Shown here: positions 1 through 62,548 of the stretch, piece after piece
Layout of the letters: each line of letters opens with the position of its first letter
Numbering within the stretch: the first letter of the stretch is position 1
NCBI RefSeq assembly: GCF_964204645.1
Contig: NC_134029.1
Coordinates: 15,556,950 to 15,620,949, forward strand
Direction of reading: 5' to 3'
DNA from: Tubulanus polymorphus
Taxonomy: Eukaryota; Animalia; Nemertea
DNA length: 64,000 nucleotides
Position numbers and translations under genes: made by a program
Notes under the pieces: generated by a model
The model's database searches: none
What the model was told of the DNA's origin: nothing
The model's input: the letters and a program-made list of their open reading frames with translations, nothing else

Positions 1-1178
1 CTATTCATGTCAGCAGGTCAGAGAAGGCCTGGCCAAATTTAACCACATGGCTCAAATCAATTAGCCTTTCTGCGTGTGAATACTTCACTGTATTGTTTTA
101 AAAATAGGCCTATCGAGTGAATTAGTACAAAGACTGAATTAGACTTTAGGCTAGTCCTGACCAAATCCTATCCATGTTATAATTGCACCAGTTATAGTAA
201 CATCACTGTAGGGCCGACGAGAGGAGAAAAGTTGTGTTTGTAGTACATAGGCATGGTTGGCTTGTCGTACTCACTTAATACTTAAAATGCTGTTGTTACC
301 TGTACGTGACTGGTCGGTGATTTCTACAGGTTAGCTGTATGTGAGTACGTTGACGCTCAGACTTGCAATATTGGGATTCGAAACCAAACAAAAAAAATCC
401 AGTTGTAGTCCAGTGATTTACCCACCACGGTGCCAGAGAACGTAACTGCAGGGTGGATGAAATTTGATTAATCTGCAAACGCGCATGCGTGAAAGAATAG
501 AGTTTGGGTTAGGTGAGGCTAGGCTATTCGTAAATCAAATTTCATCCACCCTGCAGTTCCTATAGGAACTCACGTACGGCGTTTTTAGGGAACCTGTACG
601 GTTAACCTGTGGATATCACCGTACACTCACGTACGCGTAACAACTTCGTACTTAAAAAATGGTATTGGCTACTATATAATAGGCCTATAGACAAATAAAT
701 ACCGGTAGGCTTTCTTAGCTTCCACACTTCACAACCGAACCAACTGACCAACCAGTATATTTATTCCCAGTACGCACCAACCGGCATAGGCCTAACACTG
801 TTTGTCAACTGTGTGTACCGTAGTAGGCTATCGATAATCACCTGATACTTTGCTGTCGTTTGTTTTCTCTCTGAGACGAACGTAATTCTGCACCGTAATT
901 CTAGTAGCCCTCCGCGACTCAACGACCTTGATTTAAACTTGATAAATTCAAAATCTGTTTATTGACGCTTTTGTTTACATGAACTGATCAGCAATATACT
1001 TAAATGAAATAACCGGAATAACAAGAAATCAAAAATATTAAAGAGGTAACAAACAAATGCCCGTAAACCTGTCAGACACGCGAACGCCGGACTCGTAAAC
1101 TATTGGACTCGGACCCGCTGAGCAATAAATTCATAAAATTGACTTTGAAATTGATTGTGGAGAAGAGAGGGAATAATT
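1..1178. repeat. Copy 1 of a >=1.2-kb dispersed repeat, inverted relative to 14736-16003
   Basis: Position 1 (ctattcatgtcagcaggtcagagaagg) matches the reverse complement ending at 16003; similarity continues to gagagggaataat near 1175. Confidence 0.9.
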
Positions 1179-1193
1179 TTAATAAATTTACTT

Positions 1194-1394
1194 CTAATAA
1201 AAAACTAAAAAGGATCTATGATCAAAACTTTTATCCGATATATTATAAAAAGAATTACATAAACTTATATTTACTAAATTTAAATCTACACAATTTTTAA
1301 ATTCTCTATCTAATTGTACTAGTAAATTATGTGATTTATAGTTTGTAAGTTTTCTAGAATCAACAAATATTCTACATTCTTTTAATTCAACCAT
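1194..1394 (-). pseudogene. Minor capsid (penton) N-terminal fragment
   Basis: Near-identical to 24652-24846 (RIFVDSR...LDREFKNCVDL). Confidence 0.7.
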
Positions 1395-1464
1395 TATTTA
1401 TAACACAAAAAAATCAAAACCTCAAACCACTAAAAATAATTTTAATAAAATTTTTCCTATATAA

Positions 1465-2794
1465 ATGGATGACAAGATAGAATGTAAAATTTGTGGTGAA
1501 CTTCAAAGAAAAAGTAATATGGCTCGACATATGAAAAAACATGATAAAAATTACAAACCCCCTAAAATAAACTGCCCAAATTGTAATAATTTATTCTCAT
1601 GAAATTATGTTAAAAACATTCAGAGAAGTGTAAAATTAATGATTCAACGGTTAATGTTGATAACAACCAAAGTAATAATAATTCTGTTGAAACTGAGCCA
1701 GAAATTATTTGGAAAAGACCTTTCTTATTCTATGATAAGAATAATATAAAAGATCATTTCTGTGAGCCTTTTCGAATAAAATATAGCCCTGAAAATATAG
1801 AAGATTGGGAGAATCATCAATTTCGTAAAGCACATACAGATAAAATTTCTTAAATAGAAATAATTTAAAATAGATTTGAAGCAGAATTTAATGAAAGAAA
1901 AAAATAATATATTAGAAAAAGTAAAATACGAGAAAACGTTACTAGATAATAAAGAAATACTTGAAAAGTTGGAAAAACAATAAGACGAATTAGTAAGAAA
2001 AACTTATTATTGCAAATATTGTAAATTGATTATTACAACAAGTAATTCAAATTTACATAATAGAACAATAAAACATAAAGAAAACGTAAGAAAATACCTA
2101 GAACTTAATGAAGATCTATTGCCAAGATATGATAGAAACAAAAGCCTACGATGTATTTATGTGTACTTAAGACAAGAAGATTCTGTGATATTTTGTAATG
2201 AATGTGGATGGCAAAGAAATTTATGGGGTGATGAAAAACTAGAGATATTCTTATAGAACCAAAATTAAAATATCTAGATGAAATTTTTAAGATATTTTCT
2301 ATGGAAGATCATACACCAGAAGATAAGCAATGGCTTGAAAAATGAAAATGATAGAAATTAAAAATGGTGAAATAACTAAGAAAGATATAATAAAACCAAT
2401 TATTCCATCAACATGTAACACAAAAGAAAAGAAAATGTATTTGTATTTATTATTTAACGATTATTATAAAAAACCTAAATTAACAAAAGAAGATATGGAA
2501 AATATAAAAGAATCATTCACAAACATATTAAAATATTATGTGGATAATAAAATAACAGATTCATTGAATTATGAATTCTGTTTGAATAAGTTTGTACATT
2601 TTTTAAACATCGATATTATAATTCCATTTGATGAATTAACGAACACAAAGAAACAAAGAGAGCTAGATGAAATGTGGAATAATATAGAACTTTATTTAAA
2701 TGAGAAAAATGAAATGGAAGAACCTAAACAATTCAATGAAAATGAAGAAGCCAATAGTGATTTCGAGTATGATGATATTGATTTTCTGTTTTAA
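1465..2794 (+). pseudogene. Frameshifted Polinton accessory ORF with C2H2-type zinc fingers
   Basis: TAAATG start; CKICGE..RKSNMARHMKKH and YCKYCK..HNRTIKH; acidic C-terminus in ORF 2342-2794. Confidence 0.55.
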
Positions 2795-4460
2795 TGGCCA
2801 TAAGGTGATGTTTTTATTCCATCACCTAAAATATATCTTTTATTGTCGAATGGATTTAAGCTAGCTTTTTCATCTTCATGAATGTACATCTCGTGATCTT
2901 CTGATCTTAAACAATTCATTTTATGTTTCATTACAATTGAGTTATTATAAACACTTTATATAATCTTGAAATTCTATATGTTTGTCAACCACATGCTTTT
3001 TTATTCCTTTTAATTTTTTACCCTCATGATCTTTTGTTCTATAACTATACATTTTACTTCTTATCACAACAAATTCAATCATTTCATCACCCCGCAGTTC
3101 ATCTTTTAATTTACCAGGAATTTTCTTATTATCATTGCTAAATAATTCATGATGTTTTGGATAATTGCTAAAATCAAAATGATGTTTTAATGTTTTTAAG
3201 TCTTTTGTTATGTCATTTGTCTTGATTTTAAGTATGTAGGCGTCCGTATTGACCGCTATTAATGGAATTCCACAGTTAAATGTTCCATCTCCAGTTGTTA
3301 AATCATAAACATAATCTGTTGGGTTATATATTTCAAATAAATCTCTAACTTCTTCAGTTATTTCTTTTTCTGTGTGCCTTAGAATAAAACAATTTGGTTT
3401 AGATTTAATCAATCCAATATTCATATTAAAACCTAATGAATTGCATAATATATTTAATCCTGATATACCAACTTTTCCTTTTTGTGCAAATGTTATTACT
3501 GGAGAACTCGGAAATTTTTTAGCACCATCTGCTGCGTAGAATCCAATGAAGAACCATTTTCTGAAATTATCTTTTGCATTTAATACATAATCTGGAACTA
3601 TCTTTTCTTTTGTTGAGGTATTACTTTTAACTATTGCATGAATAAAGAATTCATCATTATATTTTATAGCAAAATCTTTAGGATTATTCACAAGTATTCT
3701 ATGAACTGCTGATGATTCTAAATGTTTTATTTGGATAAACATCTTCACAGCATTTTTTAATTCTTTCTAATAATTTCAAATCTTGATTGCATACATACCA
3801 ACAATATTTATTGCCCCAAACATAATTATACACACCTGCTGAACCATCACCCATGACAAATCCTTTGATAAAATATTCTTTTTCTTCTAATGTTTCAGGT
3901 TCTATATTATGAATATTATCAATTATTTCATCAATTGACATATAATTCATTCTTTGGAAAATTATTTTATGTAATGATTCATCTCCAATTTTTATATCAG
4001 TTGGTTTTATTTCATCACCATTTTGTTTAATTAAACTATGATCTTCAGAAACATCAACGAATCCTAATTTAGTTCTAACTCTATAGATTTTCTTATTTGT
4101 TTTATGCCTAATAATATTCTTTAATTTTTTCCATCCATTTCTTGTCCAAACATCTATTAATCCATTTATTTGTATTAATTCTTTTTCACCATATGAAATA
4201 TAAAGTTCATTTTGTTTTGGAAATATTTCTGAAATTCTTCTAATTAATATTTGGTTATTGAATTTTAATAATATTGGGGTATCAGCTATTCCAGAATCAA
4301 AATATAATATTTCAATATGTTTTTCCCCAAAAAGTGGTTGTAAAACATTATAATAAAAATCATACATTAATAATTTTGATATTTCTAAAACAGTTGAACC
4401 AATGAATATAGGTTTATTAAATTTCATTGACGTTCTTTTTGAATTTTACTGCTGTTAAAT
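2791..4460 (-). pseudogene. pPolB C-terminal fragment interrupted by an intein
   Basis: FNKPIFIGSTVLEISKLLMYDFYY..ILYFD|intein|TDAYIL..FDFSNYP..KLKDE..RSKMYSY..LNPFDNKRYIL; co-linear with the intein-free pol at 25247-25930. Confidence 0.93.
3248..4295 (-). mobile_element. Intein with LAGLIDADG homing endonuclease at PolB motif C (Pol-c site); one frameshift near 3720
   Basis: Block A SGIADTPIL; block B VDVSEDHSL; LAGLIDADG motifs FIKGFVMGDGS and FFIGFYAADGA; block F YVYDLTT; block G LIAVN|T with +1 Thr. Confidence 0.93.
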
Positions 4461-5016
4461 AATCCTTTTTGCTATAAATTCATTACAAACTTCAAATTTT
4501 ATTTCATCCACATTCATATTTTCTAATTGTTCTTTTCTTTCATTGGAATTTTCTGGAGTTTCAAAATCGATAACATTTTTTTATGATTTGCAGTTTTTTC
4601 ATGCCGAGCTTTATTAGATTTATCAATGTATTTTTACAATATTTACAATAATATCGATTTTCATTAACATCATTTTTTTTCTGTCTGGTAAACACTGTCT
4701 CCCATTTATTAGGGAAAAAATTACTTGTGGTGATGAGTGATTTAAAAAAGCAAAAAAAAATTTGATTCATTAAAAAATTAAATGAACCTGGATCATATGA
4801 GCGCGGTCACCTTCCCCCTGTATATAGCAAACACGCTATCAACCGTTTTCATTAGTGCCTCACTGCATCGATCTATCCGAGCGCAGCTGGTACACAATCA
4901 CTGTACTACTATATATAGCACAACGCTATCGACCGTTCTCGTCAGCGCCTCGATCAATCAAATTGTCCAGATAAGTCAATTCGGATTCTTAATATTTAAT
5001 TAATTTTATCATCAAT

Positions 5017-5346
5017 TTATTTTTTAACAACTTCTAAATCATGATGCCCGTCTTCATTTTGCCCATGGTAAATTATTTTAAATCCTTCTAAATCTTTTAA
5101 TTCCTCTGTACTTAATGAAACCCATTTATCAGGTAAAAATACTTTAAATTCTCGCGTTGTACTAACATTACAGTAACTTAAATTTGCTGATACTTTCTCT
5201 CCATGTTTAGTTTTAATCTTTTCTAATTTCAATGTTTTATGTCCAATTTCTTTTGTAACATCGACTAACTTTTTTATTTCAAATTGTTTTTTGCTGGTTT
5301 TATTGCGTTATTTATTGTTGCTAAGAATGCTTTTCTATCTCCCATT
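5017..5346 (-). pseudogene. Small Polinton ORF (TKxG..FLPxxW..YxG family), frameshifted; possibly OB-fold/SSB-like
   Basis: Homologous to 59303-59630 and, more distantly, to 24864-25217 and 46272-46610; function is inferred only. Confidence 0.5.
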
Positions 5347-6565
5347 TATTATGGGAAAAAATTACTTGTGGTGAGGAGTGGTGTGTCGTCCTCTCGTCCT
5401 CTGATCTGAACCCCTGATATTCCAATTACTGCTATCATGCACAAAGGTCCATGGGGTAGTTAGCTACGGCACATTTCCAATATGATCATTACAGCGCGCA
5501 TCTTTATTTTCACGTCACTGCTCTCCACATATCAAATAATTTGCGATATCTTGTAAACTTTGTTTGTGGGGTAGGCCCATGGATGTAACGATCGAAAATT
5601 AGTTTTTCGTTTATCCAATACGATCGCCACGGTGGACATCTTGAATTGCTTGGTTGTGCTCAACTCACATAAAATAACAAACGATTTCTTTTCAACTTGG
5701 TTTGTCAAATGGGGTAAGCTCATGGATAAAACCTATAAAAACACCGTTGTCGCTCTTCCACGGGCTACCACGGCAGACATCTTCAATTTCTTGTTAGCGC
5801 TACACACATCAAATAACATGCGATTTATCGATAACTTGATTTGTGTAAAGGGGTAGATCCAAGGATGAAACCTATCAAAAAATGAGCTTTCTCGCTCCTT
5901 TAATGTGGCCGGCACGGAGAACATTTTTTGAATATTGAATATCTTGAATATATTGTTAGCGCCCAACGCACATCAAGTCAATCATTTCTTTTGATTTTGG
6001 TTGAAGTGTTGGATAGGATAGCTCGATAGATGAAATCTATCAAAAGTAGTCTATTCACTCACCCAAGAAGGCCGTCAGAGCGGGCACCTTGAACATCTTG
6101 TGAGCGCTCTACACACATCAAATGATGTGCGATATCTTGGTATCTGTAATGGGGTTGGTACGACGTGAAATACATCTATTAGAAATAATAAGCGTTTTCA
6201 CTCGTCTACCATGCGTTAATGGCGGACATCTTGTTTGCCCTCTCCCTCATCCAAGGAAGAATTTTCAGAAGACATAACGGGGAAAACATGCTTGGTTTTA
6301 AACCACTTTTTAGGTAAAACGGTTTTAAGAAGATGGCACCGACAAGACCAGGTACGACCCGAACCGGTCGTATTCAGGTGGCATTGAAATCTTTGTGTTA
6401 TTTCATCATTGTTGTTCATATCAGACGTCGACAATCACTTAAGTAGGGTTAACATAGATCTATCACATGTTATTAACGTCTAAGTGATAGTGATTTGAGG
6501 CTAAAATGTCTCTAGGTTACGGTCTCCGCATTGATTGCTGCAATCAATTCTTTCTGAATTTTCAG

Positions 6566-6694
6566 ATGATGATGAATGCCGCACTGGGAGGAATAATTGT
6601 GTGGGTAATGCCATTTGTGTAAACGAACCTGGTCGTTATAGATGCAAGTGTCCGAATGGTTACGACTTACAACCAGATCGCTCTTCGTGCAGAG
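6566..6694 (+). CDS. Fibrillin-like host gene, cbEGF exon
   Basis: ttttcag|...|gtaaaa, 129 nt, phase 1; DDDECRTGRNNCVGNAICVNEPGRYRCKCPNGYDLQPDRSSCR fits the cbEGF consensus. Confidence 0.93.
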
Positions 6695-7260
6695 GTAAAA
6701 TTACTAGGCGCATCATGATGCTGACTGTTTAAACATGATATTCCACCGAATATATTCATAATACATTATATACATCTACATTGACAAGGTTAATTCTTGG
6801 TGGTAGATTTTCGTCACGATTGATATCGCTAATTGATCAGGCCTGCGTTTTTCGAAGCGGTGTTAAGTTTTCCCTTTGATAAGACTATTCCAGTGTTAAA
6901 TTTAACTATCCCGGTGATTGTTATCACAGGGATAACTTCTCGTTTTTCAAAGCATTTTACCCCAGTGATAACTATCACCGGGATAAGATCATTTATCCCA
7001 GTGATAAAAATAAGAAAATGGCCGACATTTCAGCCTAATCTCTCACTTCAAGAACTAACTTATAGGATTTCTTCAACATCACAGGATCACTGAGGCTACA
7101 CAGTGGTGTTTTAATATATTTTGTATATCTTATGTCACATATATGGATGTAGTATTGCCATCAGTAACCGTGCAACCATAACAATGAAAAAGAAATCAAT
7201 ATTTTGTTCCTATGTCTCTGTACAAGACCACAATTTAAGTCCGACAGTCACAGACACACA

Positions 7261-8491
7261 ATGGATAAATTTTCTGAGGACAAGAATTCTAACCTAAAAA
7301 GGAAACGAAAAGCTAATTTTACTTCGAGTGAGCGTGTTATTCTAACTGAAATTGTGAAGGCTAATGAAGATGTACTATTTTCAAAACTAACAAACACTGT
7401 AACGAATATCAAGAAACAGAAGTTCTGGGAGTCAATTGTCGCTAAAATTAATAGTCTAAGGTATCTGCGAAAGGACTGTTAGTGAGGTGAAAGATAAATG
7501 GAAGCACTGCGTTTCAGGCGCAAAAAAAGTTTGTCGCTTACGAAAAACGATATAAAGAAAACAGGAGGTGGCCCACCCACAGTGACATTAAACGACACGG
7601 ATGAAGTAATTTTGGTTATTTTTGAAGACTGTCCTTCTTTTCATGGAATCGATACCGGTATAGAAACAGATCGTAAGTTTGATAAACAAAAATTAACCCA
7701 TTGTTTTCTTAATGACGCCCTCAAAGAATCATTAAATTTAAAACAGCAATATACAGTTTTGACAGTTTTATATCTTGAAGGCCGAATTATTTAAACTGCA
7801 GTTATTTGTAGTAGTCCGCAGGTAGGCCTGCATATATTTTATTCTTACATTTCAGGCTTTGACAGTAGGTCTACTATTACCAGTCTACCGCCTACAGCTA
7901 CAATTTCGAAACAACCAGAAATTGATGAAAGACCAATCTTAACTGAAGGTAGGCCTAGCTGATTGTATCTATTGTATTGCATATTATATTCTTTCTTATG
8001 TAATATGCGATTGTCACATGAATACTATGCAAAATCTACCAGCTTTTGCTTTGTTCCATGAATGGATCAATTCAAATATTTCAATCTTGATTCCCTTTCA
8101 CAGTACCTCAGCAACTCACGAATGTGTCTAAAATAAGTGACGCCACAACATCAAATGACTGCAAGGAAGGTACGAAATGTCATGTCGTTCATAAACGAAA
8201 AAATGAAATATACAATAAATGCCTTATCGATAAACATGTAATATTTATTGTAACGGTTATAATAAGATTTCATTTACAGATATGGAGGCCACTTCGAACA
8301 AACCAAAGATTCCTCAGCAAATCCGTGTAACTCAGGATATGATTCGGCGGGTTCAATACGAAAATCTGAAATTAGATAGTGAAAGATTGCGCTTGACAAA
8401 AACCAACTTGGAACTTCAAAATGAAAAGATTATTTTGGAAATATATTTACTGCAGCAGCAGAATGGCGTAAAAGTTGTTAATGAACAATGA
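7261..8491 (+). pseudogene. Harbinger Myb/SANT-like DNA-binding protein, spliced and frameshifted
   Basis: KRKANFTSSERVILTEIV..KKQKFWESIVAKINS..ERTVSEVKDKW..KKTGGGPP; coiled-coil last exon. Confidence 0.85.
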
Positions 8492-8689
8492 TTTAACAAA
8501 TAAGATACATGTTTGTCTTATTTTAACCAGCCAACAGGCTTCCGAAATTCATCCGTTCAAAGTTTATATGTTTAATGATTTTCAGATATTTGTCTTTTTC
8601 GACATTTTTCAATGAGTTTAATTACATGAATAGATTATATTTAACGGATATGAGCTTTCTTGTTTTCTTTAGAAATCCAAACGCAAAAC

Positions 8690-10148
8690 GCACCAGTTAT
8701 ATGAAAAAGTCTGCACAATATGATTCCTCACAGCATTGCCAATATCTCGTCCTTCATACGGCTCCAACCAAATCGGAATTTGTTGTTGTGGTTCATATTC
8801 TATGTCAGGTTCTCCAAATTCTATGGCTAGATTATGCAACGCAAAGCACGCCGCAATTACATGACAACAACATGCTGGTTTCAATTGCAGTTCACCATGA
8901 AGAACTTGAAAATAATGTATAGAAAAATTAGTATCCTATTTCTCTATAGTTGATTTGATTGTCTGATAGAGTCTCAATCAGTTAATCAACTGCAATTAAT
9001 TGTTTATCCCCTTGAAGTATGTATCCGTGTTTTTCAAGAAAATAGAAAATCGCGATTTAATCGATGCATCGTAAAAACCTAAAATAAATGTAGTTCTTGA
9101 AAAGTGGAAGTTGAATTCTAGTCATAGTTGCTTCCCAGCAATTGAGTAATTTGATGATTACCAAAAAACGTTTTTTTTTCAATTTTCCAAAAGCCATTTC
9201 AATTTGTACTCTTGATGATGTATGCGCTCGGTTGTAACGCTCCTGTCCTAGATTACTTGGCCGCAAATATGGTGTCATTAGGTATGATGAGCAACCATAG
9301 CCACTATCACCAATAATCAATCCGTCTTCAAGGGTTCTGTAATTATCTTCTAAATATCTAAAATGCAATTTTCAGACAATATAAATGAATTAATTTAGAC
9401 AATATAAATTTAAACAAGGTACCAATTTTTTACCTCTTGAGTGCCGAGTTGCGAAAAATATGTGAGTCATGGCAGGAGCCTGGCCACTTCGCTACAACAT
9501 TGATAGATTTACCTATTTAAAAGAAAGTTGATTTACTGATAAACTCGATACTGACAGAATAAACCAACAAACAAGAAGCAAAACATACCTGTATGGTCAC
9601 ATACTGCCTGGGTATTTATTGAATGAAATCCTTTTCTATTAACATATGCATTTTCATTCTCTTGCGGGCCCTTGATACGAATCTGCGTACAATCAATTGC
9701 ACCAATACAATAAGGAAAACCTCCAAAATCGTAGAAACCTTGGCGTATTCGATTTTTATCCTGATTTGTGGTCGGCCAGACTATATATTCGTTACTTTTC
9801 CTGGCAAGCGCCTCTGATACTCTATGGACACATTTCCAAACAGTTGATTTAACAAGACCAAATGCCACCCAGTGCTTCCAAATAACTACCCGTTGCGTAA
9901 TATCGGAGAGCATCCTTCACTTGTAACTCAGCAGAAAGTGCTTTGGAACGTTGTGTATCATACGTTATATCTTCTCGAATTAAATCTGTTATTCGTGTGA
10001 TATTTTCCGAAGTAAATCTATATTTCTGTCTCACTTCATTTTCTTAATAATCATTAATTGCAAATTTAACTGTTTCGTGATATCGATAGCGGCGTGAGTG
10101 TCTATAAATTCGTTGTTGATAGATATCATCATAAAAAATGGCAGCCAT
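8690..10148 (-). pseudogene. Harbinger DDE transposase (HARBI1/DDE_Tnp_4 family), intron-containing, frameshifted
   Basis: KYRFT..ALRYYATGSY; GFPYCIGAIDCTQI..YVNRKGFHSINTQAVCD; KWPGSCHDSHIF; LIIGDSGY..RYNRAH..IEMAFGKLK; ACFALHN. Confidence 0.92.
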
Positions 10149-11744: not shown

Positions 11745-12525
11745 TTAATTGAATTGATCCCTCCCCCATTTTGTCCAAAATTTAACGATTCTCAGTTTAA
11801 CATAAGTCTCTAAAGGATAGCGCCCAAGCTCATCGTAGATAAATACACTAGACGTAGATCTTTTCAATCTGAGTAGATATTTAAAAAATTGTAGCTGAAC
11901 ACGTTTGAGGACCAGTGTGTTCTCAAAAACCCTAAATTTCACTGCCAAATAGCAATATTGGTAATACCATACTATCATAAAGTTTCAAGGTCAGATCTAG
12001 GTCTAATGAATGTTCACTTGGCTTTTTTGATACAAAAAATACCGCTTTCATAGCTTGAACCGAAAGATTTTTACGACATTGTGTGAACGATCCAGTGTAT
12101 GAAAAGAGAACACCCAGGACCTTGAACTTATCAACTATTTCTAATTTGTGGCCATTAATGTAAAATTCTGGTACGATTCTTAATCTTCTTTTTGAGAAGA
12201 TAATGACCTTTGTCTTATCATCATTAATCGCAAGTTTCCATTCTTGGCAATATTCGCAGAGATTATCTACAAGTTTTTGGATTCCCTCGGGCGAATCACT
12301 TAATAAACCGTGTCATCAGCATACATGTTAGGTCCGAAAAAATCTAGAGTTGGACTATTTCGTTCTAATAGATAGCTTTCCAGGTCGTTTAAAATGATAG
12401 AAAATAACATAGGAGACAGATTTTCACCTTGTCTTACCCCTAAATAGCTATCAAAAAATCTGACATTTTATTATCAGAAAAAAACACATGATTTGATACC
12501 TTGATACATATTATGTATAGTTAAT
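11745..12525 (-). mobile_element. Non-LTR retrotransposon (LINE) reverse transcriptase fragment
   Basis: GVRQGENLSPMLFSIILNDL near 12380-12440; YADDT near 12310-12325; WKLAINDDKTKVIIF; ELGRYPL tail. Confidence 0.88.
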
Positions 12526-13948: not shown

Positions 13949-14735
13949 ATAATCATTGTAAGCCCTTTTTTTAAATAAATATTATTTATACAATTTTCAA
14001 CCAATTTATTTTTATTTTTTCAACTAATATATGAATAAGTTTGAAAATAATAACGGTTATTTATTATTACTGAGGTTTCAATATAAATTTAAAAAAATAT
14101 ATAATTTAAGGTATTTTCAAATAATATGTATTAGATATGTATTAGATATGTATTAGATACCTTAATACTTAAAACCCCCTTTTTTTATTTACTATTATTT
14201 TATACAATTTTCAACCTCTATTACTTTTTGAGTGTTAGATAATTACTTTCTGAATCACTTTCATCATCACTCTCCAATTCATCATCAAACCCTAACAATT
14301 TATTCAAATGCTCTACCGTATCTTCATCATTAGTTGTTTTTATTGTTATGCTTATTCATCCAATCAAATTTATCATTATTTTCTACTTTATGTTTCATAG
14401 AATCTTTATTATCAATATGCTTATTAGGGTTTTCTGTTTCTTCACAGAAAACCCTATTGAAATTCGCGTGATTATTATTATTTTTTTTTCCCTTTTCCAC
14501 ATAGTTTTTGTTAAAAGTGTAAAGGCTTCCTTACCTTACCGCTGTCGCCGATACAATCCGTATGATGTCCTTCAGCTCACTTCAATCTCCAGATACTGCA
14601 TGGGAATTTTGATAAATCCACGTTATAAAGGCACTGTCGAGCCGTAAACATCAGAAATTTGGCTCCATTCAATTAGTAGCCATGTTGTGTTTTCTTACCG
14701 ATATTTCTCTCTTCTTTTCGAGGAAGAGCTATCGA

Positions 14736-16003
14736 ATAATTCCCTCTCTTCTCCACAATCAATTTCAAAGTCAATTTCATGAATTTATTGCTCAGCGGGT
14801 CCGAGTCCAAGAGTTTACGAGTCCGGCGTTCGCGTGTCTGACAGGTTTACGGGCATTTTTTTGTTACCTCTTTAATATTTTTGATTTCTTGTTATTCCGG
14901 TTATTTCATTTAAGTATATTGCTGATCAGTTCATGTAACCAAAAGCGTCAATAAACAGACTTTGAATTGATCAGATTTAAATCAAGGTCGTTGAGTCGCG
15001 GAAGGCTACTAGAATTACGTTCGTCTTCGTCTCAGAAAGAAAACAAACGACAGAAAAGTATCAGGTGATTATCGATAGCCTACAACGGTACACACAGTTG
15101 ACAAACAGTGTTAGGCCTGTGCCGGTTGGTGCGTACTGGGACTAAATATACTGGTTGGTCAGTTAGTTCGGTTGTGAAGTGTGGAAGCTAAGATTATAAG
15201 AAAGCCTACCGGTATTTATATGTCTATAGGCCTATTATATAGAAGCCAATACCATTTTAAGTACGTAGTTGTTAACCGCACGTGACTGTACGGTGATCTC
15301 CACAGGTTAACCGCGTACGTGAGGTCCCTACTAAGTATATAATGCCATACGTGAGTTCCTAGTAGCCAATACCATTTTAAGTACGAAATTGTTACGCGTA
15401 CGTGACTGTACGGTGATATCCACAGGTTACCCGTACGTGAGTTCCCTACTTACGCCGTACGTGAGTTCCTATAATCTGCAAACGCGCATGCGTAAAAGAA
15501 TAGAGTTTGGGTTAGGTGAGGCTAGGCTATTTGTAAATCAAATTTCATCCACCCACCAGTTACGTTCTGTGGCACAAGGGGTAAATCACTGGACTACTAC
15601 TGGATTTTTTTTTCGTTTGGTTTCGAATCCCAATATTGCAAGTCTGAGCGTCAACGTACTCACATATGGCTAACCTGTAGAAATCACCGTACAGTCACGT
15701 ACAGGTAACAACAGCGTTTTAAGTATTAAGTGAGTACGACGAGCCTACCATGCCTATGTACTACAAACACAACTTTTTCCCTCTCATCGGCCCTACAGTG
15801 ATGTTACTATAACTGGTGCCATTATAATATGGTTAGGATTTGGTCAGGACTAGCCTAAAGTATAATTCAGTCTATGTACTAATTCACTCCATAGGCCTAT
15901 TTTTAAAACAATACAGTGAAATATTCACACGCAGAAAGGCTAATTGATTTGAGCCATGTGATTTAGTTTGGCCAGGCCTTCTCTGACCTGCTGACATTAA
16001 TAG
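14736..16003. repeat. Copy 2 (inverted) of the repeat at 1-1178; probably extends further on both sides
   Basis: Reverse-complement match to 1-1178; has an internal ~120-bp tandem duplication (agccaataccattttaagtacg at about 15244 and 15365). Confidence 0.9.
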
Positions 16004-17322: not shown

Positions 17323-17929
17323 AACAACTCAGATCAAGAGTGACTCTCCCGTTTATTAGGAAACACACGCAACTAGTGGAATAGGTTTGATTTACACACA
17401 TGTTGCAGGTATCAATTGTTTATCACTGTAGAATTTGTAATCCATAAAAGCCAAAATCAACATCAGCCGGAAACCCAGACCAAATCAATACATAATTTAT
17501 TGATTGAATCTACACTACGATATATGTATTTATTCAAATATTTCAATAAAAACATTAACTTCTTAAATCTAATCTATTCTAAATCATAATACGTTCTTAT
17601 CTGTGAATTCACTCAATCTATCGGCTCAGCAGGTGCTTAAGATGAGTTCTTAATAGGACAGATCCATTTTTAAGGATGGTGATAATACAGTATCATGATG
17701 TTTGAATGCCAAAATAAGTGCCTGGTCAAATATATTAATATTTGTGATTGTACGTCCACGTATGTTCGGTTTCAAAGCTGAATCATATTTGACGTTGACA
17801 CAGTGGTTGCATATTAGGTTCGAATCTGTCAATGCATTTTATTCTATGTATCGATATTTCAATTTACTACAATTCCCATCATTCTGAATGGCTTTACAGA
17901 AAACCCGTCATCGCTGCTTTGCAGCTATA

Positions 17930-18553
17930 TTATGTAACTATATTTTCATTATCATATTTCTTAGTGTTTGCTCCTAATATTTCATTTACAATGTTTGATC
18001 CTAATATTTCATAAGCATCGGTTAAATCTAATTCATCTTTATTAGGTGTTGCTAATAATAAATCTTCATATAATTCTTTACCATTTACTTTTTTATTTGA
18101 AACAAAGTTTGTAACATATATAAATGGGTGTTCTATAAATTCTCTTAAACCAACGCGTTCTCTAACATTAGTAATATGTATCTTTGTATTCATATGTTTA
18201 TTCCAATTTGATGGAGCGTTTGAAAATTCGCCTTTACAATAATCACAATAATTTCTATTTTCACTAATATTTAATATTATTTCATTATTAGATGTAGAAG
18301 GTATTGCATTATTAGATGTAGAAGGTATTACATTATTAGATGTAGAAGGTATTACATTATTATCAATTACATTACTTAAATTATCAACAACACCACTTTT
18401 ATTATTATCGATTTCTATTAGTTTAGTTTTATAAATTTTGAAAATAGGATCAAATATCAAAGCTATATTACAAGGTACTACATAATATAAACCATCATTA
18501 TTTTCATGTGTATCGATGTATGGCATATGTTTATATACTTTACCTCCTTCCAT
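17930..18553 (-). CDS. Polinton accessory ORF with a C2H2 zinc finger and 3x NN(V/A)IPSTS repeats
   Basis: YCDYCK..WNKHMNTKIH; 24-bp tandem repeat at about 18283-18360; TAAATG start. Confidence 0.55.
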   Translation of the reverse strand: MEGGKVYKHMPYIDTHENNDGLYYVVPCNIALIFDPIFKIYKTKLIEIDNNKSGVVDNLSNVIDNNVIPSTSNNVIPSTSNNAIPSTSNNEIILNISENRNYCDYCKGEFSNAPSNWNKHMNTKIHITNVRERVGLREFIEHPFIYVTNFVSNKKVNGKELYEDLLLATPNKDELDLTDAYEILGSNIVNEILGANTKKYDNENIVT

Positions 18554-18585
18554 TTATTATATAAATTTTTATTAAAGTTAAAATT

Positions 18586-19815
18586 CTAATACATAACACT
18601 ATTTAATTGAGAATTTACAATATTTAATTGCGCGTCAGATATAACATAAATGTGAAATTGTTGATTCTTTTATTCTTTGTCATGAATAATTGTATTCCAT
18701 CTTTAGTGTTCTGTAGTTTTTTTCCAGAACCATGTAATGGATTATCCTCTGTTGTTCTAAAATCTAACCATCATGCATATTTATTACCGGTATAATAATC
18801 AATTTGATTAATATTACAATTTTCAGATGATTTTACTTTTTCATTCATAAAATGTTTTCTAATTTCTGGCCATTGATCAATCATTCTCATTCCTTGACAA
18901 AATATTGTATTTGCTATTCCTTCGATAGTTATTTCTACTTTTGTTATTTTAGGATTATAATAATTATCAACATTTATTGCACCATTAGTATATGTTGCAA
19001 TGGTAAAAAATATTAATATACCTTTAATAGATCTTCTTGGGAAGTTAATATTCTCATTAATTATTTCATCATTTGCATTAATAGTTACAGTTTTAAATTT
19101 ATCAATATAATCATATAATAATGAAAATCCTTGATTGTATTGAGTTTGAATTGTGTTAGCAATATTTTCATCAGTTACTGTATCATATTCTAAACATATA
19201 TTCGATAATTTATAACCCCTATCTTTATTAACGCTAGATATTACAATTTCATTTACAGGAGCAAATGTTATCTCAAATATAACGTCTTCTTGAATTGCGT
19301 ATTTATATAAAGGCGCATTATTATTTATCAATTCAAAGTCTAATGGAATTTTATATTTGCTTCCATATATTCTTTTTTACTAATTTATCTATAGCATTAG
19401 TTAATATTGCATTATGTGCTTCTGATCTTAATTTATTTTGGTTTTCTGATTGGATTCCTTGAAATATCATATTATTTCTTTATATTAAATCTTTATAATG
19501 CATAAATAAATTATAATCATCTAATGAGAAAACTGTTTCTGGACCGATCTTTATTGTTAATTTTTTAATCAAATATCGTCCAACATTATCAACAACGTAA
19601 TTATTATTATTACCGATTACTTTTATATCAGCTGATAAATAAATACTATTTGGAACATAAAAAGTATTTTGTGTTAATCGAGGAATTCTAACATATAAAG
19701 TTTCATCGGGATTAATATTAGAAGGGTTATGAGTAATTATATGATGTGATCTTTCTGCTTTAATAGCATTAGATATTCTATGATTCTTAGAAGGATTGAT
19801 ATAACTCCCACTCAT
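18586..19815 (-). pseudogene. Major capsid protein, frameshifted
   Basis: ITHNPSNINPDETLYVRIP..LSNICLEYD..PRRSIKGILIFF..YALWLDFRT; highly similar to 62580-63860. Confidence 0.8.
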
Positions 19816-19834
19816 TTATTTAACAAAAAATTAA

Positions 19835-21265
19835 TTATTTATTTTTTATCATGTTTACTAACCCAAAAATAATTGCACTTACAACTGTAATTAAAAATAA
19901 AATAATATGTTCAGCAGCAAAGTTAAGAATATTCCCAGCAGATTTCAATATAAAACCAACAATCGATGCAATAACTCCGGGTAATGCTGCAGCAGATTTT
20001 TTAGATAGTTCCCATAAATATTTTGCTAATTTCTTTAAACCATCTTTAACTTTATCTTGTATAGAATTATTATTATCTGGTGGTTTATCCGGTTTATTGG
20101 GAGTAGGAGTAGATTTCAAAGAATTTGATATTGCCAAACCAATTGTTGTAAATAACATAGTTACAGCTGTTAGAATTGAAAGAATTGTTATTCCTTCTAA
20201 TTTGAATAATAATTTTATTCTATCTTACAACGATATTTCAGAATTTGGTTTTATCAACAAATCTTTAAAAATAACTTTTAATCTATTAATATTATAATCA
20301 TATGATTTTAATAATAATTTAATTTCTTCTTTTTGTAATTCTATGTTATATTCTAAATCATCTTTTTCTTTTTCTAAATACGCATTTCTTTTTTTAAATT
20401 CAATTTCTTCAATAACTTTATTATCTCTATCTAATTTTAGTTGTTCTATTTCTTTAATTTTATCAGTTCTATCTTTTTCCAAAGTTCTAATTTTAAAATC
20501 TCTTATACTTTTATCATGCGCAATTTCATCAGCTTCATTTCTTATACTAACAATTTCTCTTATTGCTTTATCAGAAAATATATCTAAATCGTCTAATTCT
20601 TGATCTGTTGCATCAAGTAATCCATTTGGTAAAAGTTTTTCAATTGGAACTTTATTTGATTTAAGTTTACCAGAAGTTGTTTCTGTTTCTAAATTATTAT
20701 CGATTGTTTCAAATAATTTTTCAATTCTTTGTTTGAATACTTTTCTATTTTTATTTATTTCTTCTTGTGTTACATCTTCTATTTCATTACTATTTCTTAT
20801 TCTTTTAATTCTATCTGGTTCTAATTTTCCCAAAGTTGATTCCGCTAATATTTTATCTTGATTTTTATAAGAGATATCAATATAATAATCATCTTTCAAA
20901 CGATAATAATATTCACCATCTAAATATTTTAATTCTTGTACTAAATATCTAGCGCCTCTATCATTGATATTATATCCAGAATTTTCAAATACATGTTTGA
21001 AATCATAAATATATTCATTATATTCTAAATTTTGCTTTAATAAACCTTGATTTTCATTTTCAGGATTTATTCTCGATCTAGTTCTTCTATCAAGTTCATC
21101 TGTTGATGGGCCTTTAGAACCTCTATCTGCTAAATTAGAATTATATGATGATGAATCATCATTATCAATATTAATATCAGCAGACACATAATCATCATTG
21201 TTAGTATTGACATCATTATTATTTCCCATTTCTTCCATTTCATAATCTTCTCCACCTTCTTCCAT
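19835..21265 (-). pseudogene. Large coiled-coil protein with C-terminal hydrophobic helices; premature stop at 20225
   Basis: ORFs 20225-21265 and 19835-20158 are in the same frame; C-terminus is homologous to 63880-64000. Confidence 0.6.
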
Positions 21266-21281
21266 TTACATAATAAAAAAA

Positions 21282-21518
21282 TTAAAATTTGAAATATAAT
21301 ATTCCTCCGATTACAATTCCTATAAAAGTTAAAGCTAATTTAGCATTTTCATGGGATTTATTATCATTATCAGTTTTAATTATATCATGTTGAATATTAT
21401 CAGTTTTTATATCTTCTGATGTATTGTAATCTTTTATTTTAGAATCATTATTTAATTTAATATTATTAGTTTTAGTTTCTGTTGATTGAATATGTTTTTT
21501 ATTTTTATCGCCTTCCAT
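21282..21518 (-). CDS. Small Polinton protein with a C-terminal transmembrane helix
   Basis: TAAATG start; LALTFIGIVIGGILYF. Confidence 0.5.
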   Translation of the reverse strand: MEGDKNKKHIQSTETKTNNIKLNNDSKIKDYNTSEDIKTDNIQHDIIKTDNDNKSHENAKLALTFIGIVIGGILYFKF

Positions 21519-22575: not shown

Positions 22576-22589
22576 TTATATAATTAAAA

Positions 22590-23027
22590 AATTAATAATT
22601 AACTAATTCTTTTAATAATTTATCTTGTTCTTCAACTGTTATATGACCATTTAAACTTATTATATAATCTAGTGTATTTTCAATTTATTAATCTCTTTTA
22701 TATTAGTTTTAATTTTTTCTTTATTACTTTTTATATTTAATTTTGAACTTATACCAGTTAAAACACTTGAACTTAATCCTAACACACCAATTGATATAGC
22801 TAAAGGTGTAAATGGTGAAAATATTGCTAGAAATGTTATTACAGAACTAATTGTAACCGAACCACTAATAATAAGATAATATATAATTTTAGATTTTAGA
22901 TATTTTTTCTTTTTTATCTTCAAATTCAAATTTAGTCACTTTCAAATTCTAATATTTGTTTTTGTAAATATATTTTTAATTTAGTTTTATTTATATCATG
23001 AGGAATAATATCAATATTATCATCCAT
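22590..23027 (-). pseudogene. Small two-TM Polinton protein, frameshifted
   Basis: TAAATG start at 23027; hydrophobic stretch in ORF 22669-22929. Confidence 0.5.
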
Positions 23028-23044
23028 TTATTTAGCAAAAAAAT

Positions 23045-23480: not shown

Positions 23481-23504
23481 TTATTTAGTAAAATCATTAC
23501 GCAT

Positions 23505-24071: not shown

Positions 24072-24095
24072 TTATATAGTGAAAAAAATTACTCT

Positions 24096-24846: not shown

Positions 24847-24863
24847 TTATTTTACATATTTTC

Positions 24864-25217: not shown

Positions 25218-25246
25218 TTATAATACATATTTTTATTAAAATTTGA

Positions 25247-28200
25247 TTAACACGTTAGAATTCTTTTCATTATCTCGTTCTCTTTGGTTTCTTCTCTTTT
25301 AAATTTTAGATATTCATCTAAATTGCAACCATAAGCAACTGTATGAATTCCATCATCTAAAATATATCTTTTATCATCAAATGGGTTTAGACTTATCTTT
25401 TCAATTTCTTCAATAAAAATTTCATGATCTTCAGATCTTAAACATCTCATCTTATGTTTTCTAACTTCTTCATTGAATATACAATTGATGTAATCTTTGA
25501 AATGAATATTCTTTTCTACTACACTTTTGGTTATTCCTTTTAACTTTTTAGGTTCATGTTCTTTAGTTTTATATGAATACATTTTAGATCTAATTCCTAT
25601 GAATTCTATCATTTCTTCACCACCTAATTCATCCTTAAACTTCCCTGGAACTTTTTTATTATCACTGCTAAACAATTCATGATCTTTAGGATAGTTGCTG
25701 AAATCAAAATGATGTTTTAATGTTTTTAAATAATCAGTTATGTTATTAGTTGTTATCTTTAATATGTAAGAATCTGTATCAAAATATAATATTTCTATAT
25801 GTTTTTCTCCAAAAAGTGGTTGTAATACATTATAATAGAATTCATACATTAGTAATTTTGATATTTCTAAAACTGAAGCACCAACATAGATTGGTTTATT
25901 AAATTTCATAGAAGATCTTCTCATTTTAACTGCAGCTAAATTTTCATCAGATATTCTGTTACCTAAAAACTTAGGATATGATTGTAAATGCCTTATCCTT
26001 TTGCCATTACTTACTAACTCAATATCATTTCTATTTCTAATATTTTCACAAGTCTTACCATAGAATGCATTGTTCATTAACTTGAAGAAATCTTTCTCAA
26101 AATCAGTTTTAGCTTCAGTTCTCCGTTTGGTGTTAAAATCTATATATTTTTCTAACCATTTAGATTGGCTAAATGAAATATATCTATGTACTTTTTTTAG
26201 GACCATTCCTTGTTTTAGATAAAACTTTAACATTCTATAATGTACTACATAATTATATTTATCTTCTTGAGTTACCATTAACTTTTCTGTATGAATATGA
26301 TTTTCGGGTTTAATTCCTTTTTGATAATTTGATAATTCTTCATGAGTAACAGTTTTATGTTCGGGGCAGTATGCTAGATTTCTAGATTTAAATTTAATAT
26401 GTTCAGGATATTCTAAATCTACAACAAAAAAGTAACCAGTATCTGAATCATCTGCATTCTTCATGAGTAACAGTTTTATGTTCGGGGCAGTATGCTAGAT
26501 TTCTAGATTTAAATTTAATATGTTCAGGATATTCTAAATCTACAACAAAAAAGTAACCAGTATCTGAATCATCTGCAATATCTAGGATTCTTTTCTTCCA
26601 ATCAAATTTATCATTATTTTCATGTTGTAAAACTTCACTTATTTCAAATACTCCATAGGGTTGTGGTTCCATCAATGCCCAACCGTATAAATCATTTGCA
26701 TCTATATATAATAACTTATATCCAGGGTTATCATTTACATTGAAATATCTATCACCTAATACACCTGAAACTCCTCCTCTTATAGATTTTTCAAATAATA
26801 GTAATTGATCTATATTTGTTAACAAATCCATTTTTATATCTGTAAATTTTAATCCACAATCCCATGTTAAACCTGGGCTAGAATAACAATGACACGGATC
26901 AATGTTAAAATATTTTAGGTTTACATCTCTAAACCTTTCAAATATATCAGTTAATAAAAATACATCTGATTTTAGATATAAATCTACTAATTGCCCATGA
27001 TTTTTCATTCCAAAATGATTCCAAATATTCAATGTTCTATTATATCCTTCATCTTTAACATATTCATTTTTTAATTCATCATAGAATTGTTCTTTTAATA
27101 ATTCAGTTATATTGAAATCATTATGTGATTTATAAAATGAATATGGAATTGCGCCTTTATATCTCATTAATTGAAAATCATCATTATTTGGGTAGTGTTG
27201 CTTTAATATTTTTAATTCATCATCAACTAATGATTTTGATAAGTTATCTAATGAACTATCAAAAAATCTATATGAATCTATAAATCTTAAACACCCAAAT
27301 TGGAATGATATATAATTCTCAGATGTTCTAGCTAACATTTTAAATCTATAAGTTGGTATTTTATCTTTTGATCTATTTGAATTTAATCTTTCTATTTCAT
27401 TATTAATTTCTTCTATTTTATGGCATAACTGTTTGATGAATAAATGTGCGTCATAGCCTGATAGATTATGAAATATAACTGGTATAAAATTGATTTTCTT
27501 AGCTTGTAAGTTACAATTCTCATGTGCAGCGCCTCTAAACTTTCCATTCAAATGATCATGGTCTCTTACTTTTTTATCTTTATAATTAAATATCTTTTCA
27601 CAATAATAACATTTATCTGCAAACTCAAATGCTTCTTTATCTTCTTCTGTCATCATAATTTCTATATTTTCATTTAACTTTTCATTAAATTTTATTTCAT
27701 ATTCAATTAATAAGTCACAAAAATGATTGATAACATTTTCATTACTATAATGATAATATTCACTTCTAATTAGTTCTGGATAATCAGATTTAATATATAA
27801 CCCAAAAGCTGCGGCTGATTGATGAATCTTTTTAATTGTATTTGTTATTGGCGGTTCTTCTGAAAAATCATTTTCATTAGAATTTAATTTCTTTCTTTTA
27901 TAATATATTTCTTTTCTATCTTGATCAGTTAATTTAACTTTAGTTCTTTTAGTTTAGTTCTTTATTTAATGATTCAAAATCTCCATATACGACAAATGGA
28001 ACTTTATTTTTGTAATCATATTTTTTTTATTCTAATATTTTATCTTTTTCATTTGGTAAAACTAATTTACAATAATCATGATTATCACATAATTGTTTAT
28101 GATTTAATAATGCACTTTCAGTTCTGAATTTATGTAAACATTTTCTACATAGATATATTTTATTATCAAAATCATTTTCTGATTTAAAAAATAAATCAAT

Positions 28201-29430
28201 TCTTTTAATCCACATATAATGATTCTCATAATATAATATATCTATAACATCATTTGACTCATAATCTTTTGATAGGTATAAAAGTTCTAATGTATAATGT
28301 TTTATATTGTTACCTTTTGTATTTGGAAATTTGATTAAATCAAATACATTTATTCTTAAATTATTATCTCTTTCTATTTTTGGGATATTTTTGATTCCAA
28401 CAGGGTAATTATCTATCTTATAATTTTTTTCAAATGGTTTATAATGTGTTAATCTATAAGTATGTTTATTATAATCTTCAACTGGGTGTAAACAACTAAT
28501 TATTGCCCATAGAAAACATTTATCATCAGAATTTTGTACATTTATAACAGCATTAGTTTTAAATGGTAATTTGATATAACTCGATGCTTCAATATCTGGT
28601 CCTTTATAATATGATAAATTATTTTCATCAATTGGTTTTGATTTAGTTAACTTATTATATTTTGTGTTATAAACATGTAAAGTCATAAATATTATTTCAT
28701 CAAATATTAAACCTGATCCTTCAAAATATTTCTCTTCTATTTTAGTTTTTTCTTCATTATAACATTTATCTAATTTATCATCTATATGTTGTTTAGATAT
28801 AATATGTTGTGAATGAGAATTTATATTATATATTGGTTTATCTTCACATTTTATAAACTTTACTTTAGAAGATATACTAATTTTAGGGTATTCAACATCT
28901 GTAATTATTTTTATGATATTTTTCATATTTTCTAAATGTTTTTTATTTTCTTCTAATGATTTTCCTTTATGAAATTTAAACTCAATAGCAGCTGGGCCAA
29001 TATCACTTTTGAATGCTTCAGTTATTTCTATATCTTTTTTATTATCTAATGAATTAATATAATTTCTTACATCTTCCATGTATGGTCTTTTATTGTTTAA
29101 TTTATTTCTTTTAATTGTCTTATGTTTCTTATCATTATCAAAATAATCTTCACCTAAAATATCATTATTCATATTTCTAATATGACTTTTAGATTTTAAA
29201 TGTTCTTTATAATATCTTTTATCACTGAATGATTGATTACATGTATCACATTTGTATGTTTCTTTTTCATTCTTTAATTCATATAATTTAGTTTCTAATA
29301 TATCATCTTCATATTCTAATTTCAATTTATTCTCTAAACGTGTTTTAGTTTTATTGTGTCTTGTTTTTGAGATTTATCTATATTTATTCTACATGTTGAA
29401 CAGTAATACTTATTTGCTTCGATTTTAATA
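25247..29430 (-). pseudogene. Protein-primed family B DNA polymerase (pPolB), intein-free, frameshifted
   Basis: N-terminal zinc fingers; EndoVII-like VRDHDHLNGKFRGAAHENCN; exonuclease FHNLSGYD and YLKSDV; motif A YIDANDLYG; motif B KLMNNAFYGK; motif C YFDTDS. Confidence 0.96.
26336..26577. repeat. 121-bp tandem duplication that frameshifts pPolB
   Basis: ttcttcatgagtaac...tctgca at 26336 and 26457. Confidence 0.92.
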
Positions 29431-31891: not shown

Positions 31892-32020
31892 ATATCGATG
31901 AGTGTACCAATTCAGTTGCAGAAAATTGTAAATTTGGTATCTGCCGTAATAATATTGGAAGTTACAGTTGCCTGTGTAACCAAGGTTTCAAGTTGAACGT
32001 GGGAGGAAATGAATGCATCG
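31892..32020 (+). CDS. Fibrillin-like host gene, cbEGF exon
   Basis: ttttcag|...|gtctgt, 129 nt; DIDECTNSVAENCKFGICRNNIGSYSCLCNQGFKLNVGGNECI. Confidence 0.93.
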
Positions 32021-49291: not shown

Positions 49292-49339
49292 ATAGTCAAA
49301 TAATTATTGAATTAAGTTAAATGATTTAAATATCTAATA

Positions 49340-49896: not shown

Positions 49897-49916
49897 TGAA
49901 TTAATTAAATGAATAA

Positions 49917-56683: not shown

Positions 56684-56839
56684 ACAAAAGAGAGGGATAC
56701 TGTTATAAGAAATTTGAAAATGGACGATGTCATGATCCCCGAAGAACCAGGACAAGTCTAGCCAACTGTTGCTGCACATCAGGTGCTGCGTGGAGTTGGG
56801 GGAATGGAGCCTGTGAAGTCTGTCCTGACCGTGACCAAG
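56684..56839 (+). CDS. Fibrillin-like host gene, TB (8-Cys) domain exon
   Basis: ttccag|...|gtatgg, 156 nt; DKREGYCYKKFENGRCHDPRRTRTSLANCCCTSGAAWSWGNGACEVCP has the CCC..G.AW..CE.CP motif of fibrillin/LTBP TB domains. Confidence 0.93.
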
Positions 56840-61034: not shown

Positions 61035-61624
61035 TTTAAATCGGTGTTGTAATCGAAATAGTAATTTTGATCTTTTATCATTTTTCAATTTATCCATATA
61101 TTATGTAAATCATGTGGAATCATATCATTTTCCTCAAGTGCATTTTTCATCGATTTCCTATCTTTATTGTAGAATAATACTAAAAATCTTATATTCTCCC
61201 TAAAATCTTTCACAATCGAATTATATTTTTGATTTAAAACACACGTTGTTATTCCAAAATGTCTCCCAGAGAAAGCTAAATAGCATAACTCACTTTCTCT
61301 AACTTTTGAATCATGTAAATTTGCCCAATCATCTATGATAAATAATGCATTTGATCCTTTATAGATATCAATTGCTATTTTGATACAATTATCTAAATTT
61401 TCTTCAACTGTTTTAGGATTTAATACAATAAATTTATTATTTCTAGTAATATTTCTATCATAAGTTTGATTAAATTCAGACGTTTGACAAAATAATACTA
61501 TATTATCAAAATAGTTTTTATAAATAGTTTCTAATAAATTTAATATAAATTAAGTTTTTCGACAATTTGTTACACCAGAAATTAACATATTATGAGGCTC
61601 AAATATAAATAATTCCCTATTCAT
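61035..61624 (-). pseudogene. A32/FtsK-HerA-type packaging ATPase with internal stops
   Basis: Manual translation: MLISGVTNCRKT (degenerate Walker A), LFIIDD (Walker B), SGRHFGIT..NQ..REN. Confidence 0.85.
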
Positions 61625-62548
61625 TTATGTATTTTTAATTTTACTCGATAATATCCATTCATTGTATTTATCTGGCCATCCAACCCATTTTACTAAAGAA
61701 TATTTTTTTCTATTAACAGTTTTTGTTTTTAATACTTTTTCAATTTTATATTCTTGTTCTAGATTTTCAGTAGTTAAACTTAATTCTTCTTCATAAAAGT
61801 ACCCATCTACTTCTTTACCATTTAAATCTTCTAATTTATAGACATATGGTTTTGTTGTTATTACCTTTTTTATTTTGTATATATCTCTAGTAAAATTACG
61901 ATCATATCCTTTGTCAAATATCTTTTCATACTTAGAAATTCTAACATTTTGACCAACTTTAAATTTAGGTTCACCAAAATCATCTATAAGAAATAATATA
62001 AATTATTCCATATAAAATTTTGTGATTATCTAAGAGTTCATGAACAAGTGAATGATCGAATTCTTTTCCATCATCAAATTGTATTTTTTCTGGTTTTAGT
62101 TTATCATCCGAAAGAAATTTTCTTAAAACATTTGATGTTTGTACAGCATCTTTTTTGTAAAGTGGGAAGCTCCATACATAACCACTAAAAATATCAATTA
62201 TATTTAATATCCACCAATAATCATTATTATCTTTCTCAACATTTTTCTTATCAATTAAATCTCCTTGCCACTGTTGATCTACATAACTTACCATAGTTTT
62301 ACGAGTTTTATATTTTCTAACAATTTTTTTATGCGTTGTATATGTTGGTTGTTCTAACATAAATTCATTTTATCTTTATATTTAACTAAACTTTGTGGGA
62401 TTATCTTATCTAATTTATCTAATTTTACTTGACGCCATATGTTTTTTACAGAAGAATAAGCAACCGAACTCTCAGGATTATAATATAAATTTCTTAGATA
62501 TTGTTCTCTAGTATTTCGAGTTTTTTTTACCCCCCCCCCCCCCCCCAT
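61625..62548 (-). pseudogene. Retroviral-like (rve) integrase with C-terminal chromodomain; frameshifted and internally deleted
   Basis: YYNPESSVAYSS; QWQGDLID..IIDIFS..IQFDDGKEF; KFKVGQNVRISK..FDKGY..YFYEEEL; LVKWVGWPDKYNEW. Confidence 0.92.

Follow-up and report, generated by a model that had tools for sequence, protein, structure and literature searches.

The window, as we call the whole 64,000-nt stretch of Tubulanus polymorphus DNA analyzed here, contains a broken copy of a Pol-c intein within the protein-primed DNA polymerase (pPolB) of a multi-copy Polinton; intact relatives of this intein are predicted to self-splice and have likely spread by homing. We give this reading a probability of about 0.8. 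The original prediction had placed a Pol-c LAGLIDADG intein in a Polinton pPolB in the intron of an animal gene, and this is supported by the insertion site, the motifs, the intein family and a spliced contig.

The insert in motif C of the polymerase is 1,048 nt long (349 codons plus 1 nt), lies at 3248-4295 on the minus strand and separates YFD from TDAY. Its boundaries are exact when set against an empty paralog in the same window: the second pPolB copy is intein-free and reads YFD|TDSY at 25778/25777. Filled and empty copies share 57 of 60 nt of the adjoining N-extein and 43 of 60 nt of the C-extein. The position of the insert, with YxD before and TD after it in motif C of PolB, together with kinship to Pol-c inteins, assigns the insert to the Pol-c allele, the site being defined in a passage of PMC549080. 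The insert consists of two overlapping ORFs with a single frame change near 3715-3725, and relatives carry it in frame at this conserved site with its known empty allele. An insertion of about 349 codons between YFD and TD, a frameshift near 3720, intein blocks A, B, F and G and two LAGLIDADG motifs had all been predicted, and all were confirmed by comparison with the empty copy and by direct reading of the insert. That the polymerase belongs to the protein-primed type is seen from its exteins, which are 59-78% identical to P0001, a PF03175 protein. The Polinton features of the window are as follows.

1179..5430 (approximate), no strand assigned: AT-rich, internally deleted Polinton remnant holding the intein, delimited by a depth drop and with loose ends.
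2794..3247, minus strand: pPolB C-extein, starts TDAY, 76% identical to the window's empty copy.
3248..4295, minus strand: Pol-c intein with predicted Hint and LAGLIDADG homing endonuclease parts, one frame change near 3715-3725; identity to the intein of the intact relative P0001 is 56% (356 columns).
3248..3310, minus strand: intein blocks F and G, from VYDL to the terminal Asn, penultimate His absent (motif inspection).
3524..3550, minus strand: second LAGLIDADG motif, FIGFYAADG (motif inspection).
3843..3869, minus strand: first LAGLIDADG motif, IKGFVMGDG (motif inspection).
4038..4052, minus strand: block B, VSEDH, which is TEDH in most relatives (motif inspection).
4296..4445, minus strand: pPolB N-extein remnant, ends YFD, shares 85% of its amino acids with the window's empty copy.
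25247..29373, minus strand: second pPolB copy, split over three ORFs; its Pol-c site (25778/25777) is empty, and it has Endonuclease_7 and C2H2 domains.
61088..62369, minus strand: from a related copy, Polinton packaging ATPase (Pox_A32), chromo and rve integrase fragments.

The intein-bearing polymerase copy is dead, since in addition to the frameshift it keeps only about 50 N-extein residues, with ~1,100 residues missing from the start of the polymerase, and its C-extein is broken again near 2945-2960. The retroviral-type integrase and the packaging ATPase are found in the related copy at 61088-62369 and are absent from the intein-bearing remnant. A candidate capsid ORF at 62583-63731 showed no Pfam family and no PDB match, and its model has a pLDDT of 29. 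The intein-free pPolB copy is broken by an exact 121-nt tandem duplication at 26335-26577.

The host gene is fibrillin/LTBP-like, as judged from its sequence, because six EGF-type exons with ag/gt ends are found on the plus strand together with an exon that carries a CCC motif and is presumably TB (8-Cys)-like. Genes of this type are animal genes. The exons are listed below.

6566..6694, plus strand: calcium-binding EGF exon (PF07645, E 1e-10; splice sites; spliced contig), the first host exon downstream of the intein element.
31892..32020, plus strand: the EGF_CA exon that follows, spliced to 6694 over an intron of 25.2 kb.
34138, 44720, 54775 and 55023, plus strand: further host EGF exons.
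56684..56839, plus strand: exon with the CCC motif, presumably TB (8-Cys)-like (splice sites, motif).

A contig of run X3 splices 6694 to 31892, and the exon upstream of 6566 is located outside the window; the element thus lies in the intron 5' of exon 6566-6694. The prediction that the intein sits in an intron of a spliced fibrillin-like gene is borne out by this contig. X3 also contains intein-bearing contigs (3248-4440). Given its spliced host contig, this run probably contains cDNA, which hints that intein-bearing copies are transcribed.

The 25.2-kb intron 6695-31891 is crowded with remnants of mobile elements, among them a PIF/Harbinger remnant at 7168-9916 (Myb_DNA-bind_5, DDE_Tnp_4), a reverse-transcriptase fragment at 11932-12312 and a decayed Polinton at ~17900-30100. 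Inverted arms at 1-1178 and 14735-16003 enclose a host exon; we rejected them as the ends of one element, the exon between them being spliced. This 1.2-kb repeat is inverted, lies in neighbouring introns, has a very high copy number (X5 depth ~1,600 at 900-1110) and is possibly a Polinton terminal repeat. A further Polinton-like structure, a near-perfect palindrome of 5.9 kb, was found at 48147-54091; its arms are ~96-99% complementary and it contains 24-nt tandem arrays.

Raw reads and contigs were compared with the window to determine how the element is linked to its surroundings. Contigs from three runs (X1, X2, X3) span the N-terminal intein junction, and X1 contigs cover 5401-6919 with 0 differences, joining the end of the element to the host exon. 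Among the reads and contigs listed, none connects the intein itself to a host exon or bridges the C-terminal junction. The missing connection to the exon is what a chimera or a contamination from a free virus or protist, rather than an animal chromosome, would lead one to expect. We consider such an artefact very improbable, because the insert is present at high depth in the raw whole-genome reads of X5, which come from another sample and another study under the same species label: the mean depth is 176 over five insert bins and 9.6 over six host-flank bins (~18x), and 274 and 329 in the extein bins adjoining the insert. Of 16,034 X5 reads over 900-7200, only 580 are at least 99% alike, whereas 4,038 fall between 95 and 99%, 8,870 between 90 and 95% and 2,546 below 90%, a spread that agrees with a large number of diverged copies, of which some carry the intein and others lack it. 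The decay of the copy by frameshifts and deletions, the related Polinton remnants filling neighbouring introns and the junction covered by X1 likewise speak against an artefact.

The window intein shows Ser1, VSEDH, VYDL, a terminal Asn and a +1 Thr, and its penultimate His is absent. Its N half scored 28 bits with TIGR01445 (intein_Nterm), above the cutoff of 24.5 (E 3e-6). Pfam alone was weak on the intein halves: Intein_splicing remained sub-threshold on the N half (E 0.12), and the C half matched no intein or LAGLIDADG family in Pfam and no PDB sequence. The AlphaFold model of the P0001 intein (pLDDT 64) matches TliVMA (E 6e-15), PI-PkoII, PI-PfuI and PI-SceI. The TIGR01445 profile on the window's N half and the model of the intact relative P0001 together point to a Hint fold. 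Ser1, the terminal Asn, the +1 Thr and both LAGLIDADG Asp residues are conserved in 25 of 25 full Polinton inteins, a set that includes several near-copies; the block B pattern is matched in 23 and the penultimate His is present in 19 of these. PF14528 was found on P0001, P0071, P0073 and P0359, and the family carries two LAGLIDADG motifs with their acidic residues.

Searches with the window intein yielded 59 matches, the best of which is the intein of P0001, an intact 1,693-aa PF03175 pPolB carrying the same intein (59%, E 1e-68); 54 of the remaining 58 matches are PF00136 PolB. Using the P0001 intein as query, three more protein-primed hosts (P0063, P0071 and P0073) were detected among 120 listed of 1,392 matches, and inspection of one locus, L001, from a metagenome scan (80 of 229 loci) added a further pPolB with this intein. 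In a search for shorter proteins, 105 of the 120 listed (2,468 in total) match a Polinton-type intein best, 100 of these the intein of P0063. Many of these proteins are truncated and located on contigs of 100 kb to 1 Mb, as one would see for chromosomal copies in decay, and the number of genomes behind them may be small. P0359 is encoded on a 2.5-kb contig filed under the MAG of a bacterial symbiont, Ca. Thiodiazotropha 'ex Ctena', and we infer that this contig is host clam DNA. No further full pPolB intein was found among the best 150 of 3,306 representatives, 43 of 324 proteins having been left out of parsing. In IMG/VR no Polinton with this intein was recognised: the scan with P0063 returned no relative, and the 11 motif matches are all rPolB.

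Polinton inteins are 38-74% identical to one another and, judged by their sequences, form an old clade of their own that largely tracks the exteins. Identities of inteins and exteins run in parallel (82/74/79% for P0073 and P0359, 48/47/46% for P0001 and P0063), which suggests long residence in Polintons and speaks against constant movement. The exteins of P0071 do not align with those of the others (best E 3e-6, most >0.01), whereas its intein shares 39-46% identity with theirs and clusters with those of the window and P0001 with support of 98/89 and 95/84 in two trees. An intein so related between exteins that cannot be aligned argues for a jump between polymerase classes; based on the strength of the PF03175 match, P0071 is likely Alpha-class and the type found in the window Beta-class. 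The copy in the window is not unique, and by sequence the clade occurs in several Polinton families, with many of its inteins intact.

Phylogenetic trees were calculated to compare these inteins with those of large DNA viruses and archaea. The Polinton inteins are monophyletic in every tree, with an SH support of 0.998 (7 of 244 rows) in one tree, 95/78, with the bootstrap unsettled, in another, 96/82 in a third and 100 when long outgroups were left out. The trees contain 7, 15 or 11 Polinton rows, viral rows were thinned by identity and near-copies dropped, and the sample is skewed to sequences found by Polinton queries. Polinton and giant-virus-type inteins group apart from seven archaeal Pol-c inteins and from P0027 and P0052 (98/97), supporting giant-virus-type PolB inteins as the nearest relatives outside Polintons. 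In no tree is the Polinton clade nested within viral inteins with support, and with distant inteins as the root it is either the sister group of the giant-virus-type inteins as a whole or forms a polytomy with them. For the proposed NCLDV source this means that the closest kin are as predicted, and that separation from archaeal inteins is clear, while nesting is not obtained and the trees identify no donor.

The motif FNxG[FYT]PL in block G is common to Polinton inteins, 32 of 237 viral-type inteins and 11 IMG/VR rPolB loci. Giant-virus PolB inteins with this motif (P0004, P0080, P0203; L173-L183), all hosted by RNA-primed PolB, are the top BLAST matches outside Polintons, and their blocks F and G are 64% identical to those of Polinton inteins, compared with 48% for other rPolB inteins. 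Forced grouping with this subclade, which was picked as test group after the BLAST matches were seen, is 23.8 log units better in a 69-row set and 7.0 log units worse in a 52-row set, and it is not rejected in either test (p-AU 0.8 and 0.32, the latter in the 52-row set). The free 52-row tree does not recover this sisterhood, and shared columns count 4 for and 12 against it.

The likeliest direction of transfer, as far as the sequences tell, would be capture from an RNA-primed into a protein-primed PolB, because all outgroup inteins (the seven archaeal ones, P0027 and P0052) reside in RNA-primed PolB; co-infection, as originally proposed, would be a possible setting. A different origin, either from an unsampled phage or archaeal-virus lineage or with movement from Polintons to giant viruses, would agree with the sister or polytomy position of the Polinton clade. 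We regard it as doubtful in view of the hosts of the outgroup inteins, the block G motif shared with viral-type inteins and IMG/VR loci that are all rPolB, and a yield of only one weak match among 50,697 phage records.

A specific link to the Mimivirus PolB intein, which the original prediction had drawn from sequence likeness and from the missing penultimate His, was rejected: identity is only 33-40%, the two do not group in the trees, and absence of this His is not diagnostic given its presence in most full Polinton inteins. The Mimivirus intein (P0151), a pol-c allele described in PMC549080, has the motif-C site, a length of ~350 aa, Ser1, Asn and +1 Thr and the LAGLIDADG motifs in common with the Polinton intein. 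The latter, in contrast, belongs to a separate clade, is found in animal chromosomes and has a protein-primed host whose exteins cannot be aligned with Mimivirus PolB.

The viral intein family also occupies other sites, namely topoisomerase II-domain proteins (P0024, P0059), D|TDG or D|CDG sites (P0205, P0319) and PolB motif B (SAN|SMY), with P0062 and P0134 among the other-site set. On sequence grounds this family is evidently prone to non-allelic jumps. Two giant-virus-type PolB inteins, L161 and L162, are located on contigs filed in Bacteroidales MAGs and are probably misbinned viral DNA.

Filled and empty alleles were compared within protein clusters for traces of homing. In the P0063 cluster (136 members), 7 of the 15 members listed are filled, 6 are empty and 2 lack coverage of the site. 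All 10 fixed differences between filled and empty members (1,191 extein columns) are located at -7 to +44 residues from the site, and the empty alleles are 78% alike just upstream of it and 98% farther off. This pattern, read from proteins rather than DNA, is what co-conversion and target escape would leave; its first part, the differences flanking the site, could also stem from a single old conversion followed by amplification. In the P0350 cluster (121 members) the exteins of the filled P0446 and the empty P0449 match at 100% over stretches of 300 and 169 residues. The empty alleles P0182 and P0184 read YTD|CDS, with the Thr of the catalytic motif changed to Cys, and represent a candidate escape allele.

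The same alleles could be explained by an intein that still splices and no longer homes, a passive passenger. Filled and empty copies would then be no more than subfamilies, or would stem from precise loss, and transposition would have multiplied them. Vertical descent of this kind predicts the parallel identities of inteins and exteins among related polymerases, and far from the site the filled P0063 members are indeed slightly closer to each other (99.4%) than to the empty ones (98.5%). We nevertheless judge this explanation unlikely: both nuclease Asp residues are retained in every full member across deep divergence, the fixed differences cluster solely at the site, where the empty alleles have diversified, and P0071 requires a lateral move.

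Class-1 splicing, and cutting by LAGLIDADG nucleases followed by gene conversion, are established intein biology. Applied to the reading we prefer, an actively homing intein, Ser1 would start the N-O acyl shift, aided by the block-B His, the +1 Thr would take over the ester and the terminal Asn would cyclise, rejoining the YxD|TD active site, so that the polymerase would work only if splicing works. The freed LAGLIDADG nuclease would then cut motif C of Polinton copies that lack the intein; with a filled copy as repair template, the site and its flanks would be converted, and copies with an altered site would escape cutting. Empty targets would be supplied by dispersed Polinton copies, and probably by co-infecting free forms too, whereas single-copy animal genes could not provide them. 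The lineage would go back to one old capture from the RNA-primed PolB of a large DNA virus, after which it would have descended for a long time together with Polinton polymerases and jumped at least once from one polymerase class to another, a move that the short stretch of YxD|TDS codons probably allowed although the polymerases are otherwise unalignable. We think it somewhat more probable than its opposite that the lineage has long persisted in animal germlines by homing among Polintons, has crossed major pPolB classes and drives escape mutations in motif C.

Several known systems come close to this one. A section of PMC10710043 describes nuclear scaffolds of Klebsormidium, Tetrabaena and a labyrinthulomycete whose viral-like DNA polymerases contain inteins; there, too, an intein entered a nuclear genome inside a viral polymerase gene, whereas the hosts are non-animal and that section mentions neither Polintons nor protein-primed PolB. 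For nematode Polintons, passages of 10.1101/2023.08.22.554363 report HNH and VSR nuclease domains in pPolB, with the word 'intein' occurring 0 times in that paper, and nuclease insertions in Polinton pPolBs were suggested to result from 'intein invasions' in a passage of PMC11071308. Those insertions are likewise nuclease domains inside a Polinton pPolB, but the passages give no Hint or LAGLIDADG, whereas the window shows the catalytic motif interrupted by a complete intein. Polintons/Mavericks (adintoviruses) as treated in PMC8502044 share pPolB, rve integrase and A32 ATPase with the window, and 'intein' occurs 0 times in that paper. The word is likewise absent from PMC11131425, 10.1101/2025.04.19.649669 and 10.64898/2026.10.13.758929, and passages in PMC12220804, PMC3671162, PMC5718144 and PMC13768754 are generic. 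Direct homing between distant PolBs was judged implausible in a passage of PMC549080, which makes the jump between unalignable polymerases notable. The literature searched, outside Repbase, InBase, subscription journals and the supplements of PMC10710043 and PMC5784728, yielded no account of a Hint-type intein from an animal genome or from a Polinton pPolB. The intein allele as such is known; what is new is the class of its host protein and, in the case of this window, its location in chromosomal DNA of an animal.

According to passages in two reviews (PMC5784728, PMC8529194), metazoan genomes lack inteins, and work on intein inhibitors as drugs relies on animal genomes being intein-free. If a lineage has indeed persisted in animal germlines by homing among Polintons, no earlier intein family would be known that resides in animal genomes, nor any in protein-primed polymerases. 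The Polinton Pol-c family would qualify the rule of absence from animals, since its inteins are located in multi-copy viral elements and not in host genes, and it suggests that the barrier in animals is a shortage of empty homing targets rather than splicing chemistry. It would also record gene exchange between RNA-primed and protein-primed polymerases, which have little in common beyond the catalytic motif, and thereby mark past contact of large DNA viruses with Polintons. With filled and empty alleles present in one genome, homing, co-conversion and escape would become measurable from assemblies.
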